This document shows, piece after piece, positions 3,109 to 12,735 of a stretch of DNA of 64,000 nucleotides. Positions within the stretch are counted from its first letter, which is position 1. The number at the start of each line of letters is the position of its first letter. Source of the DNA: Prorocentrum cordatum (lineage: Eukaryota); assembly GCA_963575745.1 (NCBI GenBank), contig CAUYUJ010000137.1, forward strand, positions 434,001 to 498,000, in the 5' to 3' direction. The notes below the pieces were generated by a model. It was not told the origin of the DNA. It ran no database searches and saw nothing but the letters and a program-made list of their open reading frames with translations. The position numbers and the translations under genes are program-made.

Positions 3109-3319
3109 TGTCAAACGAAACCTCCTCCTGATAGGCTCTGACTGCGAGTGAGCGGCGGTAAGATGACACGTTTATCTCGCCGAAGGCGCGTCAGCTACTA
3201 AAGGTGCCTGTAAGCCAAAAGATGATGACACACATATACAACAGAGCATGACACATGCACAGGCAAAGAATAGAATAACAAAGAGGTTTAATCTCATAGG
3301 GACACACTGAATTCACACA
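3109..3319 (-). repeat. 3' LTR of element 1
   Basis: Direct repeat of 12525-12735 with 2 substitutions; preceded on the minus strand by a short purine-rich AAAATGGGG stretch (possible PPT). Confidence 0.96.
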
Positions 3320-3749: not shown

Positions 3750-6700
3750 CTAGACCTCCTGCTCCTCTTCCTCCTCCTCCACATTCTTCTGAGTTCGACT
3801 CAGATACTTGCTGGAATACGCTTTGCTCCTGTTCCGAGACGATGGTAGATCCTTTCGCTCCTGCAAGCTATCTGCCTCGGCCACAAGACGCAATAGGCCG
3901 GTCTTCAACATCCTGAACTGCGAAGCGTTTCCCTTCGACACATCTGACTTCGTCATAATATCGACGGTCATGGCTGGATGTGGGACCCAGCGAATGCTGC
4001 TACCTATTCTCTCCATCACTTCTCTGATAACTGCAAGGTCCACTGCAATTCTGCGATCTGCTTTCGATCCCGAGGTTATCTTATCTAGAGTATCAAAGAT
4101 TCCTTTGGCGTCAACGATGGACACATTCTTCAAAGGGGACACGTTCAACTCGCTATCCTGCCGGAGGACGGTCGTGAAGGGACCCACATGATCCCTCCAT
4201 GTGTTCGTCAACAGGCCCCCTTGAGTCACCTCCAAGAAAAGCATCTGAAGCCATTCCGCCTCCCCCAGAGCGGCACTCAAGGAAATGACTTCTCCTCCGA
4301 GGGTGGACGGCACCTGTCTTCTGAGGCGGGAGGACCGCCAAGCTAGAGGAGTCACGCGAGAGAGGCGGCCGGTGGAGAGACTCTGATCAGCGGCATACAC
4401 TCGCCATGCTTGTTGAGCATGTCCTGGCCGGGCAGCACCGATTCCACCCGCATCTGAGGCCGTGCCAAAGATCATCTGACCCTTCTTGAATCTCCACACC
4501 GTTATTGGAATCGAGGCAGTACTTCGCAACATGCCCACTGCCTTGTTGGCCTCGAGGGCGTCGCCTACAGTGGGATTGTTGACCCGGGACGCAAGTATAG
4601 ATGCCGTGCCTGATACTTCAGCTCTGGACTCACGGCCAATCCAATTTAATTTATAAATCAAGGATCTGAAATTAACGCACTCCGCGCCGAGCAATGGCTG
4701 GTTGTGATCGCTTCTTCGATGACGAGGGATGTCCAGACGAGTAATCGATTCCAGAATGTACTTTTCCTGGTCGACTTGAGCGCGGTCGGATAATAATCTA
4801 ATGCGTCGTCCAACGTACTCGACTCCATTCTCGTCGATCCGCTCAAGCTTGCCGAAGTTAAAACGAGAACGAAAACGATCTATGCGTTTCTTAGCTATAG
4901 AAGGATGCAAGGCCATGATCCAGTCGTCTACTTCTACAAGTACTTGGCTTAATAGTTCGTTGTCCTTCGTCCTCTCATAGAACCAACAGGGCTCTAGCCG
5001 ACTCTTGCCATATCCTAGCTCCTTCTGGAAGAACTCTGAGGTAGTGGTATGTAGCGCTAACGGAGCATCGTCCAATCCGTAGACCGGTGCTAGTAATTCT
5101 ATTAATGAACCTGTCGGCAGATCCAAGCCTTCACAGGGTTCTACAAATACTCTCCCACGAGAACGCGACAAATTATTACTCTGACAGAACGCGTTCTTGA
5201 GGTCGCCCACGTAGAGCTCTAAACCGTACATCAAACTTATAGTAATGAATAACATCAAAGCTTCCATCTGAGGTGTCGGCGCATACGCGCTGAGCTCAGC
5301 AGTGTCTTCGTCTTCATGTCCCCGAACGCACCAACGGCTCTTGGCCTTGGGCCTAGAGTGGACTCCAGGCTGGGGCTTCCACCGGCGAACCATTCTAGAA
5401 GAGACCACTCTGTTGGGAAACAGACGTCTTAGCTCGTGGCCCATGGAAGGAGGATGAACCTTGACAGCACCAGAGCTCGTCATTGCCTTCCACTCAAGAC
5501 TGTCAGAAGCCCTAAACTCCTCTCGCTCTTCTTCGGTCATTCTCCCAAGATGTGCCTCTTGTCCCTTGTTGGTGGCCAAGCTTAGGCCGCATCCAGAACC
5601 TCCAGGAAAAACCTCCACAAACATGTCCGCGTTCCCGTTGAGATATGTCTGCCAGTCTCCACTCCACCCACAGACCTTCAGATGAGAATCAAGGCTCTTC
5701 TCGACGTAGTCGGCTCGCTCGTTCCACGAGCCGGGGTCCTCACAGCGATCCTGAAACAGACATAGAGCATCCGGGATCTCCTCGTCGAGGTCCTCATAGA
5801 GAACCCAGGTCTCGGCCCCAGGGCCGTCTCGTTGCTCGGGACTCCGGGACCGGGGAGCCTCTCGTTCCTGAATCTGCTGCTGAACTCTACCGTAAGGGAT
5901 CCCGCCGAAATCCTCCCCCCGGGTGGGCAGCCGTCGGGCCCGAGGGCCCAGGTCTAACATTCGGTTCCTGCGGACCGCCTCGGCTGCGGCACTAGACACG
6001 GCCCGCTGAAACTCTTCCTCGGTTCCCCCTGGCAGGGGAGTGGGAAGAGGAGACGGGCGAGGCTCCAGGGACGGTCCCGAACCAGAGGAAACCTCCGGCC
6101 CGACTGGGCCTTCAATTCTTGGCTCAACTTGTCGCTCCTGGCCCAACTCCGACCTCGACCCAGAATCGCTCCCGGAGAGCTGCCGTTCAGTCCCTCGGAC
6201 ATCGTCGGACGAAGAATTTTCCACGGACCCAGGGCCCCGAACTTGGCTCCTAGGTGAAGCCGTGGAATCGACAGGCGCCCCAGGCACCGGCACCCCCGAG
6301 GCAGCTCCAGGTCGCTCCTGATCCAGAGGCCCTAGGAATCGATCCAGAGGAGCCTCCGCAGGAGGCGGAGAGGAAAGGTGGGGAACGGCCCTGCGTGAGG
6401 TTGCGGCACCCGATGGAGTACTTGCTCCACCTGAAGGGGTACTTCGCGTCCCTGTGTCTCCTGCGGGCGCGTCGGAGTGAGCAGGAGGAAGAGACTGCAT
6501 GCCCTCGAGTCTGGTGGATGCTGGAACTGGATCGGACCAAGCCTCTGCAGGAGGATCGCCTTCGGACTCCACGTCAACTCCGGCTCGTTGATGTCCTGAT
6601 CTCACCTCTCGAATGAGCTCTTTCACAGCAGGATCGAACAAGATTTCAGCACCTCTTGCTTCTGGATTCGTTGCAGCACGAACTTGACTAGGGGAACACT

Positions 6701-7331
6701 TCCACAGACGAGTTCTCATTGCCACCCATCCAGTGTTTTGAGAACGCATGATCACAATACCGGGACCTACCCAGCGATCCCGCTGCAAAGCCATCGTCTT
6801 TTTCCCTGTTCGAGGTGCTCGTCTCCAAACATATACCCATTGGCCAGAGTGAAAGACGTGGTCTTTGTGCTGCCTCGCTCGATTGGCCTCCTGGACCTTC
6901 TGGCGACTGGTGATCCTGAAGAGCTCACGGCGTGCATACTCCCTGATGGAATTGCCCCTGGCGTACCCCGCGGCGACCGTGTCCCGATCCCAAGCCGTTT
7001 CCATCAGGTCGGCTGAGCCTACCCCGTTCACAGCGTCATCGGATAGCACGTCGTTAGGGATTCTTGGGTTTTGCCCCAGAACTAACTGATATGGACTGAA
7101 ACCACCGCGATGGAGGTATCTGTTTTTTGAACTTACGATACCGTGAAGTAGTGTCTCTAGGTCACGCTCATCCGAAACCACCTGATCCTCCATCCCCTTC
7201 AGCAACAAGTCCTTCACCCATCCTCCGTGTCTCTCAGCCTTCCCGTTCTCCCAAGGGCTTTCCCCGTTGACGACGTGCAATAGGATACCGTCGTGCTCTG
7301 CTCCTCGTCCAAAATACTGTTCGAACTCGGG
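3750..7331 (-). CDS. pol: Pol part 2 of element 1: integrase C-terminal half, RT, RNase H
   Basis: ESPWENGKAERH (integrase E), KAKSRWCVRG, DLKNAF, YGLDDAP, VEVDDW (RT), ASDAG, GGEV, VDAK and VDIMTK (RNase H). Joins part 1 as DGGPEF if one G is removed from the G7 run at 7332-7338. Confidence 0.92.
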   Translation of the reverse strand, partial: PEFEQYFGRGAEHDGILLHVVNGESPWENGKAERHGGWVKDLLLKGMEDQVVSDERDLETLLHGIVSSKNRYLHRGGFSPYQLVLGQNPRIPNDVLSDDAVNGVGSADLMETAWDRDTVAAGYARGNSIREYARRELFRITSRQKVQEANRARQHKDHVFHSGQWVYVWRRAPRTGKKTMALQRDRWVGPGIVIMRSQNTGWVAMRTRLWKCSPSQVRAATNPEARGAEILFDPAVKELIREVRSGHQRAGVDVESEGDPPAEAWSDPVPASTRLEGMQSLPPAHSDAPAGDTGTRSTPSGGASTPSGAATSRRAVPHLSSPPPAEAPLDRFLGPLDQERPGAASGVPVPGAPVDSTASPRSQVRGPGSVENSSSDDVRGTERQLSGSDSGSRSELGQERQVEPRIEGPVGPEVSSGSGPSLEPRPSPLPTPLPGGTEEEFQRAVSSAAAEAVRRNRMLDLGPRARRLPTRGEDFGGIPYGRVQQQIQEREAPRSRSPEQRDGPGAETWVLYEDLDEEIPDALCLFQDRCEDPGSWNERADYVEKSLDSHLKVCGWSGDWQTYLNGNADMFVEVFPGGSGCGLSLATNKGQEAHLGRMTEEEREEFRASDSLEWKAMTSSGAVKVHPPSMGHELRRLFPNRVVSSRMVRRWKPQPGVHSRPKAKSRWCVRGHEDEDTAELSAYAPTPQMEALMLFITISLMYGLELYVGDLKNAFCQSNNLSRSRGRVFVEPCEGLDLPTGSLIELLAPVYGLDDAPLALHTTTSEFFQKELGYGKSRLEPCWFYERTKDNELLSQVLVEVDDWIMALHPSIAKKRIDRFRSRFNFGKLERIDENGVEYVGRRIRLLSDRAQVDQEKYILESITRLDIPRHRRSDHNQPLLGAECVNFRSLIYKLNWIGRESRAEVSGTASILASRVNNPTVGDALEANKAVGMLRSTASIPITVWRFKKGQMIFGTASDAGGIGAARPGHAQQAWRVYAADQSLSTGRLSRVTPLAWRSSRLRRQVPSTLGGEVISLSAALGEAEWLQMLFLEVTQGGLLTNTWRDHVGPFTTVLRQDSELNVSPLKNVSIVDAKGIFDTLDKITSGSKADRRIAVDLAVIREVMERIGSSIRWVPHPAMTVDIMTKSDVSKGNASQFRMLKTGLLRLVAEADSLQERKDLPSSRNRSKAYSSKYLSRTQKNVEEEEEEQEV

Positions 7332-10300
7332 CCCCCCCGTCGCATATGATCATCTCGGGCGGCCGGAAGTAGCGGGTCCAAGAGGATTGGAAAGCCTCCC
7401 AGCACTCCTTAGATCCTCCCTCATATCGCTGCACTACTTGGAAGTTCGTGCCGTGACAGACAATATTTAAGAAGCAGAGGGTCTTGTCTTGGAACGGGAT
7501 GTAGAACGAATCTACTCCTACCACTCTGTTGAACTGATACGTCTTCGGCAGTGCTACCCTACGATGTGCAGCTGGCTTCTTGTGCGCCGAACATTCCGGA
7601 CATCTCAAATGCTGTCTGACATAGATCAGGATCTCAGGCTTAGCTTGAGCAGCTTTCAATACTTTGACGAAGTTCTCCGGGCACGGGTGTCCAAGGTTCA
7701 CATGAAGCTTGTAAATCATGTCCTGAATATTCGGCGTTATGTCGATAGCCGAGGCGATTTCCTGAGCCTCCGCGTCCTCACCTTGCCCCTCCTGATCTCC
7801 TGCCTCCTCCTCGGGCCCTGGGACCTGGGGAAAGGAGACAGAGGGAGAGGAAACTGGACACGGGGAGCAGCACAAGCAGGGGCGGCCGTCCCCGTACTTC
7901 ATCGGAAGCCTGGCTGGCGGCCGCGGACGCACCCCCTCCCCGCTCTCCCGGCCGAGCCTCAGGACTCTAGGAATCAGACCTATCTCCGCACAAGTCACTG
8001 GTTCCTCGTGATTTCTAGATTTCTCGCTCCTGCTGATAGCCAGGGCGAGACGCTGACACAACTTCTGGGGATACACCTGAGCCGCGCGAGTGAGAGCACT
8101 GCCTTCCAAAGGAATGTGTTCGTGACCTCCCTCGCACATGAAGCCAGAGAGAGTGCGAGCGACCTCTGGGCAATTGGTGAGGAAGCCCGTAGGCTTCTTG
8201 GACACCCCATGTGGTGAGACGCACAGATCGAACTGGCAAAGATCGACTCTTATGTAGAAGACACCTGGGTGAGAGATCAGCTCTCTCAGGCACTCCGTGT
8301 TCCAGGATGTCGCCGCGTGGGGTTGTTCAAACAAAAACTTCCTGCCAGCCTTGACCTGCGTCCACGCAAGTTCCACCGAAAACCTCAACAACTGCATTCC
8401 TTCCGCCTGCTTCCGCAGAACCTCCTCACTGGGCTCCTTGCCCTTGTTCAACGATTGAATCTGAGAAAACGCATTGCACGGAGGTTCAAGCATAAGCATC
8501 CAGGGTGTCTCTCTCCGCACATGAGCCTTCGCCTTCCTCTGGTGTCTCTCGAGCCTGAAGTCCCAGCCTGTCGTAAGATCCCGACTCCCCTGGACCTTCA
8601 CTTGATACTTCCTCAACAGCGGGGACACCCGCGGGGGGGAAAACACTTCCACGAAGCCCCCTGGGGGCTTAGCACTCGGGGGAAAAGGGTTAATTCCCTC
8701 AGAGTCTAACAAAGTACTGGGTTCCGAATGGGAAACTTTCTTCGAAAAATTACGGGGAATGGTGACTTCTGAATCATCGTTGGTTATGTCTCCCATCCTT
8801 AAGTCCTGCCAGCAGGTCTGCTCGAACAGCACCAGAGGTACTCCGCGGACATCAATTGATTTGAGATCTCGGGTACCTTCCATTGAAGAAATCCTCTTGA
8901 CCTGATCCGCACCTGGCTGAGAAATCATAAAACCTGACCAGTTCATGTCAATAGTACCCGAGGTCTCCGATGCAATGGCAGATCGTGCCGTCTCTGGCAG
9001 AGACGAGAACAGCACGACACGATTCTCGCGCTCCGGGGCGCTCAGAAAACTTTTCAGAACTTCCCCTCGTCCTCCTCGGGAATCTTCTGGAATCCCTTCT
9101 CCCTGGCGGAGGAGGCCGCTGCCGGGGTCTGAGGCGTTGGTGGAGCCGACGAGCCCGATGACGTCGCTGCCTCCATGCGGCGCAGCGTGACGTTCTGGTC
9201 CTCCACCACGCGCATGATGTTCAGCATCATCTCCTTCTGCTCCGAGAGCTGGTTCTCCGTCTTCAGCAGCCGCGACGCCATCTCGAGTGCCTCCTCCTGG
9301 TCGGCCCTCTTCCGCGGCCCCGCGGGAGTGGTCCGACTCTTCGGGGGAGATGGTCCCGATGGAAGCTCCTTCTCCTCGACCGGGGGGCCTATCTCGTCGA
9401 CTGACATCGAGCTGTCGTCCTGCTCCTCCTGAGTCCTCTGAGGAATCACCCGACGAACTCGGAAGGACGGCCTCGGGTCTTTGTCCGGGCCTCGCTGCTG
9501 GATCTCCATTATGTCCTCGTAACTCTGTGGAAGACCGTCCGAGATCATCTCCAGAACGTCTCGGTTTGACCGATACCCCAGACGAAGATCGCAGGCCTGA
9601 CATTTCCACCAACGAGCGTGTCCGTTGGCATCCGTCATCAAGAAGTGAATCGAGTGGCCGCAGGAGACTTGCTTCGCCATCAGGCGACGGTCTCGCTTGT
9701 GCACTCTCGCCGGCCACAGGGAACCGCGCTTCACCATGCCCATGAACTCCCAGGCCCTGGTGTTCACCACTGCCAGCAGCGTGCGCACCATCTTCCACCA
9801 CAGGGAAGCCACGCGCTCGCCTGGGGTCCTCGTGCTCGGCATCTCCTCGCACCGAGTCACAAGCTGGACGAAGGCCTAACCACTGATCAACGCTTGAGAA
9901 CCGAAGAAGCTGCGGTCGCACGCCGCTGATACCTTGCCTTCCCGGGTCGTGGTCCTGGGCATCTTCGTCGTCGTCGTGTCTGTCGTTGTTCCTCTTTACT
10001 TCTTGACCTCGTCGTCCCTCCTCTACGGTCGTCTCCTTGTCTCGTCTGTCGGACTCTTCCTCACGTCTGTGAACGTCGTCGTCTCGGGGGGCGGATAACG
10101 GAGGGGTAAGCCGGAGAGCCGAGACAGAAAAGGAAGGAGAGAGAGAGGACGGTGATGGTATGTAGTGGCCCTGGGGCTGCTTCTGAAGGCAAAAACAGTC
10201 CGATTTTAAATTCGGGAACTTCTTCATGAGTCCCTCGGGGCATTTAAACTCGAGGGGGGAAACCACCTCGTCGATCCGAATGCATCTGTGACCTGAGGGG

Positions 10301-11070
10301 AGGCGCAGCATGGATGCCTCGCAGCCCTGATCCCCCAGGAATGAGAAAAACACCTTGTTCTGAACCAGATCTACTACTGCACCTAGAGCCTCAATCAAAC
10401 CTATTGGCATCAGTGGGGGTATGTCACCCTCCATCACGTCTAATTCGATGATTCCCATGTGCTTACCTATTCCAGAAGGTAGTAAAACGCTGCTCACAAC
10501 ACGAGCTGAACCGCCTACTCCCCGGGCTGAGCTGTTTCGGGCTGGTAACTGGACAGACCGATACCCTTTCTTTGCCATATGCTCATCGAACAGTGCCAAG
10601 GCGGACTGGCCTATCAGGCCTTGTCCGGCAGCCGTGTCTACCACGATGCATCCGGGCGGCACGGGCAAGCACGCCTTCCTGGAAGCCTCCAAGGAGACGT
10701 TGTTCCTGCCGAGCACGATGGACAGAGCGCCGTCCACGAGTCTCGCCGCCTCGAGCTCCACCAGCAGCGTGAAGGAGTTGCTGCCACCGGAGTCGTTCAG
10801 AAAGATGAAGCCCGTGTTGCGACCCCCGCGCGGCCCGGCCTCCTTGTTGGACGCCTGCGCCGCGCCGGAGCCACCAGCCTGCGGACACTCATTGCCCCAG
10901 TGCCCTTTTTGTTTGCATATCCTGCACCGCGTTCTTTTCATGACTTCTGAGAGAGGCATCCTGCTCTTCCTCGGCCTCACCTGCCCGTCCTGACCTCGGC
11001 GGCCCTGGTCTCGGGATCGATCAGGGCGAGGCGGCGGTGGAACGCCGTCTGGAGGCGACCGAAGTACTTG
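7330..11070 (-). CDS. pol: Pol part 1 of element 1: CCHC knuckle, aspartic protease, linker, C5-MTase-like domain, integrase N-terminal half
   Basis: Within ORF 7234-11223: CRICKQKGHWGNEC (~10885-10926), IVVDTAAG (~10636), EVFSPPR...PPC...EQP...KKPT...YP (8035-8655), HVNLGH...CPEC, VGVD and ICDGG. Confidence 0.9.
8035..8655 (-). other. C5 cytosine methyltransferase-like domain in element 1 pol
   Basis: Motif I-like EVFSPPR, catalytic-motif-like EPPCNAFS (PPC at 8476-8484), motif VI-like FEQP (8320-8328), KKPT, C-x3-H-x-H and C-terminal YPQKLC. Confidence 0.75.
9054..9860 (-). CDS. Overprinted alternative-frame ORF inside pol (C-x-H...W-x-x-C-x2-C motif plus a coiled-coil-like segment); function unknown
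   Basis: 268 codons open in the +1 frame relative to pol, which also stays open; protein-like composition; CGH...NGHARWWKCQAC motif. Confidence 0.6.
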   Translation of the reverse strand: MTRCEEMPSTRTPGERVASLWWKMVRTLLAVVNTRAWEFMGMVKRGSLWPARVHKRDRRLMAKQVSCGHSIHFLMTDANGHARWWKCQACDLRLGYRSNRDVLEMISDGLPQSYEDIMEIQQRGPDKDPRPSFRVRRVIPQRTQEEQDDSSMSVDEIGPPVEEKELPSGPSPPKSRTTPAGPRKRADQEEALEMASRLLKTENQLSEQKEMMLNIMRVVEDQNVTLRRMEAATSSGSSAPPTPQTPAAASSAREKGFQKIPEEDEGKF

Positions 11071-12311
11071 CGGCCCGTGCGCAACTGTCTCTTGAAGTCG
11101 CGGTTCTGCTTCCATGTTTTTCTCCTCTGCGTCTGCATCTCCACTAGCACCTCTGGCACCTCTGTCTCGCAGAGGTCCCGGCTCTCCAGCGCGGCCAGGA
11201 GAACGATCTCGTCGTTCGTGCACATGCTGGAGACGTCGTCGTAGTCAAGCAAGTCGTCGTCCTCGTCGTCCTGCGCCGTCTGGTAGCTCGCCGAGCCGCC
11301 GACGCCGGTGGCCAGAGTCTCCGTCAGCATGGTCCTCATCTTGCTGGTGGCCAGCGTCTCTTTCTTGGTAATGTCCAATTCCCGAAGCGCCCTGATGGTG
11401 GACGAGTAGTCGTTCTTGTCTCCCGTGAGCACGCGCACGAGTTGGGCACTATGATCGTCAAGAGAAGCTCCTTCTTCGACAAACATCTGTTTCCAGTCAT
11501 CTGGAACTTCCATCCCTTGAACTCGAAGCTTATCAAATTGAAGATCAAGACGCGCTGTGAACTCCGTGAGTGTCTCATTGGGTCTTCTCTGAAACTGAAG
11601 TAGACACTCGCGGGCCGTTTTCCTCCTTTCATCTCCTCTTCTCTCACCTGACAGCACGTCCAAGTAGTCCAAAATGGCTCGGACGCCCCCACTGCTGGTC
11701 AATATATCATCTGTCAAGTGTTCTAACTTTCGTTGAAGCTCCACTCCAAGAGCTTTCATTACTTTGTCTGCGCGACGAGCCACTGCGACGTCCGTGCTCG
11801 ATTGCCATCTCACGATTCTTCGACGCCATAGCTTGAAATCCGGCCAGCCCATCCACGCTTCAGGATCCGTGTAGTCTCCTCTTTCCTTCCCGTCGGTCTT
11901 GCCCTGCCACTCGGATGGAGAAGACCACCACGAATCTGACCATCTGGTCTGCGGCGCCCACCATGACGCCGAGCTATTCTCGTTCCAGGCATTCCACTTC
12001 TGGTCCTCCGAAGTGTCGGCCTTCTTCCACGGATCTGTCACTGGGTCCGTGTGCCACACGTCGTCCTTCTCGCCGTAGCCCTGAGCTCCTGAGCGGCTCC
12101 TCCATTGTCCTTGCCCCTCGCCCTGGTCCCCACGCCAGCGCTCCCCAGAGGCTTCACAATGGTCACCGTTCTCTGCTCTCCTCTCCCATGGTCCGCTCGA
12201 CCACCAACCCTCCCCTTGGCCGGTGGGAGCTGCGGACTGCGGACCGGCACCTCTAGCACCTCGCAGCTCTTCCCGCACGACTTCTCGAATCACGCGGGCC
12301 AGCTCCGACAT
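10977..12311 (-). CDS. gag: Gag-like protein of element 1
   Basis: Open frame after the PBS (first ATG at 12311) with a Trp-rich N-terminus, FKLWRRRIVRW and RRPNETLTEF capsid-like motifs. Homology continues into the next ORF, which is in the -1 frame. Confidence 0.8.
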   Translation of the reverse strand: MSELARVIREVVREELRGARGAGPQSAAPTGQGEGWWSSGPWERRAENGDHCEASGERWRGDQGEGQGQWRSRSGAQGYGEKDDVWHTDPVTDPWKKADTSEDQKWNAWNENSSASWWAPQTRWSDSWWSSPSEWQGKTDGKERGDYTDPEAWMGWPDFKLWRRRIVRWQSSTDVAVARRADKVMKALGVELQRKLEHLTDDILTSSGGVRAILDYLDVLSGERRGDERRKTARECLLQFQRRPNETLTEFTARLDLQFDKLRVQGMEVPDDWKQMFVEEGASLDDHSAQLVRVLTGDKNDYSSTIRALRELDITKKETLATSKMRTMLTETLATGVGGSASYQTAQDDEDDDLLDYDDVSSMCTNDEIVLLAALESRDLCETEVPEVLVEMQTQRRKTWKQNRDFKRQLRTGRKYFGRLQTAFHRRLALIDPETRAAEVRTGR

Positions 12312-12511
12312 GCTACCATCCGTTCCAACCTTGCTAAATCCGCGATCACTCGCGGTCGGTGTCCGTGGCGTGGCGGACTGGACTCGCCGCCTTCCTTGAG
12401 CTGAGCACCCTCCTCGGCGTCCTCTGTCCGCTCGGTGCTCGCAGCAGCCATCGGAGGATTGAGCGGAGGCGCAGCAGCGTGAGAGCTCCCCGGACCGGGC
12501 GTGGTCGAGGA

Positions 12512-12523
12512 GCTCCGCTACCA
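12512..12523 (-). promoter_or_regulatory. Primer-binding site of element 1 (TGGTAGCGGAGC), probably initiator tRNA-Met
   Basis: Begins with TGG 1 nt after the LTR; resembles the iMet-type PBS TGGTA(G/T)CAGAG. Confidence 0.75.
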
Positions 12524-12524
12524 C

Positions 12525-12735
12525 TGTCAAACGAAACCTCCTCCTGATAGGCTCTGACTGCGAGTGAGCGGCGGTAAGATGACACGTTTATCTCGCCGAA
12601 GGCGCGTCAGCTACTAAAGGTGCCTGTAAGCCAAAAGATGATGACACAAATATACAACAGAGCATGACACATGCACAGGCAAAGAATATAATAACAAAGA
12701 GGTTTAATCTCATAGGGACACACTGAATTCACACA
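12525..12735 (-). repeat. 5' LTR of element 1
   Basis: Direct repeat of 3109-3319; TG...CA termini; followed on the minus strand by the PBS. Confidence 0.96.

Follow-up and report, generated by a model that had tools for sequence, protein, structure and literature searches.

Can one stretch of a retrotransposon pol gene encode two proteins in different frames of the same strand? This question is raised by a 64,000-nt stretch of DNA from Prorocentrum cordatum (contig CAUYUJ010000137.1, positions 434,001 to 498,000; called the window here, with position 1 as its first letter), in which a long terminal repeat (LTR) retrotransposon of 9.6 kb lies on the minus strand, running from 12735 to 3109. 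An original prediction, made from the sequence, had placed an overprinted gene of 268 aa at 9054-9860, in the +1 frame relative to pol. We observe that two same-strand frames are indeed open, i.e., the pol frame at 7234-11244 (frame A) and a second frame at 9054-9875 (frame B), so that the open +1 frame stands, and that its bounds are wider than first given, with 273 codons from stop to stop and 262 aa counted from the ATG. We put at roughly 0.7 the probability that 9054-9875 codes in both frames and is conserved as such in a dinoflagellate copia-like LTR retrotransposon lineage. The idea of a dual-coding gene has held up in that both frames are open beyond expectation, frame B is constrained, and the layout is kept in a second family of elements. 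On this reading, frame B would encode a protein of ~260 aa that opens with a helix and an L-W-P motif, has a zinc ribbon of the form C-x-H...C-x2-C, and passes through a disordered linker into a coiled coil at its C-terminus. Frame A across the overlap would be a low-complexity, probably disordered spacer that ties the protease to an unassigned domain, integrase and reverse transcriptase (RT), as well as RNase H, and in which selection would keep stops out without conserving the residues. The third codon position of B is the first codon position of pol, and therefore silent changes in B are possible while the spacer varies freely.

The length of frame B is by itself no evidence of a gene, because the window contains 41 stop-to-stop frames of at least 250 aa. 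The coding signature, on the other hand, lies in frame B. Within the overlap, GC at codon positions 1/2/3 is.61/.48/.79 in frame B and.80/.61/.48 in frame A, and it is the former that resembles gag, and pol outside the overlap (.55-.65/.45-.50/.54-.68). This bears out the earlier remark that the pol frame reads like off-frame sequence in this region.

Selection was examined with contigs of four public runs aligned on 8500-10500, which gave 124 variants; among the 40 listed, 20 fall within 9054-9875, and the counts that follow refer to these. Fourteen of the 20 lie on the third codon position of B (P=9e-4), and 14 of the 20 are synonymous in B, against 24-28% expected (binomial P 2e-5 to 1e-4); in frame A the synonymous changes number 6 of 20, against 28-31% expected. 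Eighteen of the 20 come from a single diverged contig covering 9447-9717, over the zinc ribbon, and 13 of these 18 are synonymous in B. In this small sample, the residues of frame B are under purifying selection. In addition, the copies aligned on 8500-10500, including pieces that are 10-15% diverged (records 3, 4 and 6 of run X1, and record 11 of run X2), contain no insertion or deletion. A joint in run X2, from 10024 to 9060, was disregarded, as it consists of 18 letters per side in low-complexity sequence.

The openness of the pol frame was assessed by synonymous shuffles that held the +1 protein and its codon usage constant and counted the stops in the pol frame. Frame A has 0 stops in the overlap against a mean of 6.8 in the shuffles, and was stop-free in 0.02-0.05% of these; the third frame of the overlap has 13 stops. 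To calibrate the test, we applied it to five regions of the element with ordinary coding, in each case with the frame that starts on the third position of the coding frame; 74 stops were counted there where 109.9 were expected (ratio 0.67). After calibration, frame A would be expected to hold ~4.6 stops, which gives a Poisson P(0) of ~0.01, and every control region of at least 230 codons had 6 stops or more. Across the region that it shares with B, the pol frame avoids stops and is kept open.

When metagenome contigs were scanned with a protease alignment, 16 loci were identified, two of which (L004 and L005) carry the same arrangement as the window element. These two loci are 99.2% alike, have ~50% GC, and are related to the window element at ~31% protease identity. 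Each contains a 378-codon open reading frame (ORF) that is in the +1 frame relative both to the protease and to what follows downstream (the further domain, integrase and RT). This ORF has the same parts, namely a helix, a coiled coil that is rich in Q, and a zinc ribbon (NWDCVH...GGNRHGRYTHCVLCKTRIEY), the last found by hmmsearch at E 2.9e-7 and 9.1e-6. A second family with the same +1 layout shows that the out-of-frame layout is old, and no accident of the window copy. Frame A of L005 contains 1 stop across this ORF, against 9.2-14.8 expected in the shuffles and ~6.3 after calibration (P(<=1) ~0.013), and the joint probability of stop avoidance in the two families is ~1.5e-4 under the calibrated Poisson model. 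L004 and L005 differ at 10 positions over 900-2400, too few to be of use. The other loci reach less far: L003 and L008 are cut off ~370 nt past the protease, where L002, L006 and L007 also end, and L001 extends only 120 nt into B, with two stops and a 5-nt indel, and decides nothing. No match was found in viral contigs, searched with both the protease alignment and the L005 protein, or in genome contigs searched with the protease alignment. We also observe in L005 a 47-nt GT..AG stretch (2131-2177, with an equivalent in L004) that would rejoin B to the pol frame, and in which a perfect GTAAGT coincides with the nested ORF's stop codon.

Frame B has protein relatives of its own. A HMMER search of 1.84 billion representative sequences identified seven proteins at E<=1e-3, four of them labelled Prorocentrum cordatum, and one of these four 99% identical to part of B; their lengths are 90-305 aa, except for one gene model of 1005 aa, and a profile search among longer proteins added a further relative (P0009). 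The relatives have in common a long helix, L-W-P, the pattern C-x-H...G-N-G...W-x-x-C-x-x-C-x-x-R-L-x-Y and a later heptad-like region, and in an alignment of seven sequences L42, P44, N73, C84 and R87 are the invariant or common columns. One of them, the transcript-derived P0005, starts in frame B and then continues for ~200 more codons in the spacer frame, with 31% identity to the window spacer over 147 aa (E 9e-6). It looks like a frameshifted copy, and provides a further case, in a distant relative, of an open spacer frame. P0005 and P0007 are labelled Pyramimonas sp. CCMP1952 in EukProt, and P0007 clusters at 90% identity with a Prorocentrum cordatum protein; label and sequence may be mismatched here. 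Word-index protein searches with frame B near full length and with region 380-800 of pol, which includes the spacer, gave no match, and a search of metagenome contigs with frame B alone gave 59 pattern matches, of which 0 were confirmed. None of four accessions is present in the proteome supplements of PMC10449503.

These results bear on whether the overlap is an artefact, in which compensating indels moved pol off its true frame, or in which B is a chance frame in GC-rich DNA. The 41 long frames of the window and the further frame breaks in this copy could be taken that way, but the aligned copies are free of indels, a recent shift would have laid bare ~5-7 frame-A stops where 0 are observed, and both the homologs of frame B and the layout of the second family count against it. 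Compensating indels confined to a single copy, which would have undone the original prediction, are contradicted by the 10-15% diverged copies and by family 2, and we consider an artefact of either kind extremely improbable.

A different explanation takes B to be a relic, i.e., a former in-frame pol domain that an old frame change turned into spacer, and which is no longer translated, its openness and composition being left over. When the spacer protein was held constant, frame B was stop-free in 1.8-4.7% of shuffles, so the openness of B alone is weak evidence, and in the window frame B has a TAG four codons ahead of its first conserved motif. A relic would, however, not be expected to have 14 of 20 listed variants synonymous in B, conserved zinc-ligand and other columns over seven sequences, or a +1 layout with an open 378-codon B in a family at ~31% protease identity, and we consider this explanation highly unlikely. 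The same results bear on which frame came first. The gene had been proposed as overprinted inside pol, and the likely direction is the reverse: it is pol, in its linker, that looks overprinted on the nested gene, since the coding signature, the homologs and the constraint are all found in the +1 frame and pol here reads like a spacer held free of stops.

We infer that B is made separately from full-length Pol, and the sequence around its entry offers candidates for how. The ten bases CCAGCTTGTG, a splice-acceptor-like motif of the type CCAG|CT, occur once in the window (0.3 expected) at the entry to frame B, and the same ten bases (CCAGCTCGTG) are found at the B entry in L005, L004 and L001 in another codon phase. 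That the bases are kept while the phase is not points to a signal at the nucleotide level, for example a splice acceptor. The ATGs within 10226-9780 are 9962, 9842 and 9791, all in frame B, and the first ATG past CCAG|CT is in frame B both in the window (9842) and in L005 (1367); the Met at 9842 aligns with the Met of the L005 protein, ahead of the common [M/Y]-x-[S/L]-T motif.

The signals named in the original prediction are present in the window. Its in-frame ATG at 9962-9960 exists, reads ACG (row 9961) in some aligned contigs, which are short, low-complexity pieces, and is not needed as a start given the ATG at 9842. Its TAG at 9878-9876, which separates this ATG from B, does have its A (9877) as the third base of a pol TTA codon. 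Its long pyrimidine tract near 10090-10160 is 80% C+T over 10085-10165, and CCAG|CT at 9858-9867, common to family 2, is the better acceptor candidate. Around the upstream ATG, at 9907-9978, we observe a very high summed depth of 31-46-nt contigs from run X5 over a GACGACGACGAAGATG stretch, which is a low-complexity acidic repeat and is probably common to unrelated loci.

The production of B may involve splicing to an acceptor within pol, removal of a short intron, or a +1 frameshift. A start from the acceptor-like CCAG|CT at 9864/9863 would be the most likely, and could come about in two ways. One is a spliced or spliced-leader trans-spliced subgenomic mRNA translated from the ATG at 9842. 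The other is a short intron at 9921-9876, which would divert Gag-protease ribosomes into B, and yield a Gag-protease-B fusion ending at 9054; a +1 ribosomal frameshift would yield the identical fusion. Two gene models would fit such fusion products, P0009 as gag-protease-B and P0006 as protease-B-next domain. The +1 frameshift heptamers of Ty1, Ty3, prfB and antizyme (CTTAGGC, GCGAGTT, CTTTGAC and TCCTGAT), four motifs beside which other sites are possible, are absent from 10200-9800, and 10-15-mers of the spliced-leader core were not found in the window. The fullest version, namely a conserved acceptor in pol from which a trans- or cis-spliced subgenomic mRNA is made, with pol reading the same gene as an out-of-frame spacer, is one that we hold tentatively, and at clearly less than even odds.

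Splicing could also remove the dual coding altogether. In this explanation B is an ordinary pol exon, two short spliceosomal introns lead from frame A to B and back to A, a single polyprotein Gag-protease-B-X-integrase-RT-RNase H is made, and the openness of frame A is incidental. Candidate introns can be found on both sides. For the A-to-B junction of the window, GT-AG candidates of 30-120 nt number just two, the 46-nt stretch at 9921-9876 and its 58-nt variant, and a 44-nt stretch at 9162-9119 is one of five for the return to A; in L005, removal of 1253-1295 (43 nt) and of 2131-2177 (47 nt, with its GTAAGT donor on the B stop) leaves 1348 stop-free codons. The weakness of this evidence lies in how common such candidates are by chance, as L005 has 96 that lead from A to B and 34 that lead back, and the sole window GT-AG intron that retains the whole of B is 20 nt long. 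The P0006 model, which joins the protease, B and the next domain, is what a pol exon would predict, but both P0006 and P0009 are predicted gene models. B closes with a stop in the window, L004 and L005, and the models P0001 and P0009 end on B-frame sequence, the last residues of P0001 being those that precede the B stop. The introns of this explanation would render harmless the frame-A TAG that L004 and L005 contain, and there is a precedent in the Ogre LTR elements, which splice an intron between GAG-PROT and RT (PMC6317226). Stop avoidance of frame A in two families would be left unexplained, and on balance we regard a pol exon as unlikely.

For a product of frame B, the AlphaFold model (9-row alignment; mean predicted local distance difference test score, pLDDT, 66) contains a helix at residues 7-39, three strands at 68-92 and a second helix at 177-228, this last preceded by a disordered acidic, proline-rich stretch. 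The motifs read from the sequence beforehand, CGH...NGHARWWKCQAC and LEMASRLLKTENQLSEQKEMMLNIMRVVEDQNVTL, are present. C61, H63, C81 and C84 are the candidate ligands of the putative zinc ribbon, for which the model shows three strands, and helix 177-228 is coiled-coil-like. Of the candidate ligands, C84 is invariant, and C61, H63 and C81 are kept in 5-6 of 7 sequences. B has no Pfam match that reaches the cut-off (the best being Cas12f1-like TNB, with E 0.23, and FdhE central, with E 0.007), no Foldseek match on the PDB (best E 1.0), and no match in the PDB sequence profile search or the Atlas. We infer an oligomerising accessory protein that would bind nucleic acid or a partner, and that would be needed for the element's own replication.

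Several observations weigh against the dual-coding reading. The window copy is not intact, and shows two further frame changes, at gag/pol and in the integrase core. The selection sample is thin, with 18 of the 20 listed variants coming from one 271-nt metagenome contig that covers the zinc ribbon, and the stop avoidance is modest, at P ~0.01 per family once calibrated. The overlap of the second family contains one frame-A TAG, common to L004 (1932-1934) and L005 (1678-1680), in the context AAC TAG GAT, and derivable by one C-to-T change that is synonymous in B. This TAG is a nonsense mutation that both loci share or else a site of read-through, and L004 and L005 are possibly separate descendants of a TAG-bearing master, since their 3′ breakpoints differ. 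The start of B is not conserved, as three relatives have Tyr at the presumed start Met. P0006 (CAK0828923.1) is a single protein that joins the protease to a B homolog and then to the downstream domain, and P0009 likewise combines gag, protease and B, and ends on B-frame sequence. Finally, the database searches with B, in Pfam, PDB sequences, Foldseek and the Atlas, returned nothing from which to name a function, the one given above being a proposal, and B is a predicted product; the run data are contigs.

The element that surrounds the overlap is listed in the table. Its LTRs are 99% alike, and this copy is young. The order protease-integrase-RT-RNase H is taken from translations, and the element appears to be copia-like mainly by this domain order, because Pfam gives just a zinc knuckle and RVT_2, both below cut-off (for RVT_2, E 1.4e-6 and 28.5 bits against a cut-off of 31.6); the protease and the integrase have no Pfam match. 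Gag and pol overlap by 268 nt (10977-11244, minus strand), with pol at offset 2 (-1) relative to gag, and an X XXY YYZ heptamer was sought in this overlap and not found. Family 2 (L003-L005) has a single frame for gag, CCHC and protease, and, compared with L005, the window has ~35 additional bases between KYFG in the gag frame and DRSRDQ in the pol frame. In the integrase core the frame breaks at ~7290-7320 (minus strand; ...ICDGG, then PEFEQYF...), where L005 reads an unbroken DGGGEFQE, and this break looks like a 1-nt indel of the window copy or an assembly error. Between integrase and RT, at 5670-6450 (minus strand; residues ~300-560 of the second pol frame), lies a second long low-complexity linker, rich in Pro, Ser, Gly and Glu, with GC of.72/.59/.60 by codon position.

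The domain that follows the overlap shows ~35% identity among the window, L005 and P0006, and is an extra pol domain of this copia-like lineage. The methyltransferase label originally attached to it is not borne out, as neither Pfam nor the PDB profile search gave a DNA methylase family match. No Pfam family matched the window domain at E<=5, the L005 version had just a chance-level ENTH match, and the PDB profile search returned only CCHC knuckles, from P0006; the structural model (pLDDT 43.7) was too poor for a fold search.

Table. Features of the retrotransposon and of the overlap, in window coordinates, ordered in the direction of reading.
Feature	Position	Strand	Basis or remark
5′ LTR	12525..12735	-	211-nt direct repeat, 99% identical to 3109-3319
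gag frame, stop to stop	10977..12587	-	homologs in the gag part of L003/L005 and in that of P0009
pol frame A, 1336 codons open	7234..11244	-	CCHC knuckle, protease, spacer, conserved domain, integrase N-terminus
CCHC knuckle in frame A	~10879-10926	-	zf-CCHC Pfam match weak, below cut-off
Protease (aspartic, VVDTAAGQ) in frame A	~10195-10662	-	38% identity to P0006, E 2e-41
Pyrimidine-rich tract	10085..10165	-	80% C+T, ends ...CCCCCCGAG
Upstream frame-B ATG	9960..9962	-	separated from B by TAG
Candidate GT..AG intron, 46 nt, frame A to B	9876..9921	-	58-nt variant if ending at 9864
TAG closing frame B upstream	9876..9878	-	overlaps pol codon TTA (9879-9877)
Frame B, +1 to pol, 273 codons stop to stop	9054..9875	-	frame A here is the pol spacer, residues ~457-730
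CCAGCTTGTG, splice-acceptor-like motif (CCAG|CT) at frame-B entry	9858..9867	-	sole window match
Likely nested coding sequence, 262 aa + stop	9054..9842	-	first ATG 9842-9840, Met aligned with L005 protein Met; terminator TGA at 9054-9056
Predicted N-terminal long helix, residues 7-39, then L-W-P motif (L42, P44)	9726..9824	-	AlphaFold; invariant columns
Zinc-ribbon-like unit, three strands	9567..9662	-	candidate ligands C61, H63, C81, C84; N73, R87 invariant
Predicted long C-terminal helix, residues 177-228, coiled-coil-like	9159..9314	-	AlphaFold, pLDDT 86-92
Conserved domain between spacer and integrase	7945-8727	-	L005 2899-3798; motifs GWDF, EPPC.AFS, F.FE.P
Rest of integrase, RT, RNase H, another frame	3750..7349	-	translation; L005 comparison; RVT_2 below cut-off
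3′ LTR	3109..3319	-	repeat partner of 12525-12735

If conserved, this case would show that a retrotransposon in a giant, non-compact genome can evolve and keep an overprinted frame. Were the reading through a spliced subgenomic mRNA true, it would mean an overlapping accessory gene in the style of retroviruses and hepadnaviruses in a protist copia-like retrotransposon, old enough to span families at ~31% protease identity, and the predicted module of zinc ribbon and coiled coil would be an addition to the retroelement toolkit. Prorocentrum gene models hold pieces of B as "unnamed protein products", two models fuse B with gag or protease, and dinoflagellate genome annotation would gain from recognising the B ORF.

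Among known LTR elements, Ty1, of the copia superfamily, uses a +1 programmed frameshift at CUU-AGG-C to pass from gag into pol, whereas a shift in the window element would leave pol for an accessory frame that terminates. The Ty1-copia-like elements of Symbiodiniaceae (SmTCL) have integrase before RT (PMC5776459), as the window element would by its translations, and in Symbiodinium Copia is the most abundant LTR superfamily, described without a DNA methyltransferase (DNMT) domain (PMC5890265); the available portions of these two accounts mention no nested ORF, overlap or extra domain between protease and integrase. The Ogre elements (Ty3/gypsy) resemble the window element in being LTR elements with a special region directly after the protease, and in Ogre this region is processed in part of the transcripts, which sets the polyprotein that is made (PMC6317226). 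In Ogre, however, the region is a non-coding intron between two ORFs, whereas the region in the window codes in two frames with pol open unspliced, and splicing in the window element is a candidate.

Long genes nested in another on the same strand are characteristic of compact viruses, among them hepatitis B virus (HBV) and the complex retroviruses, and our literature search, in sources available in part, found no report of such a gene in LTR retrotransposons. The closest likeness is with the P and S genes of HBV. Here too, a gene lies wholly within a reverse-transcribing polymerase gene on the same strand, and with the same geometry (p1 = s3), in that the third position of the nested gene is the first position of pol, as in frame B (PMC9093120). 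The two systems differ in that HBV is a virus with its own S mRNA promoters and the window element is a protist LTR retrotransposon, in that the nested product is an envelope protein in HBV and a predicted protein with a zinc ribbon and coiled coil here, and in that there is no sequence relationship between them. The HBV polymerase also has a spacer between functional domains that is variable and probably disordered, and one published model takes preS1 to be the ancestral frame, on which the spacer was overprinted (PMC9093120). The window element would offer an independent test of this model of a spacer overprinted on an older gene.

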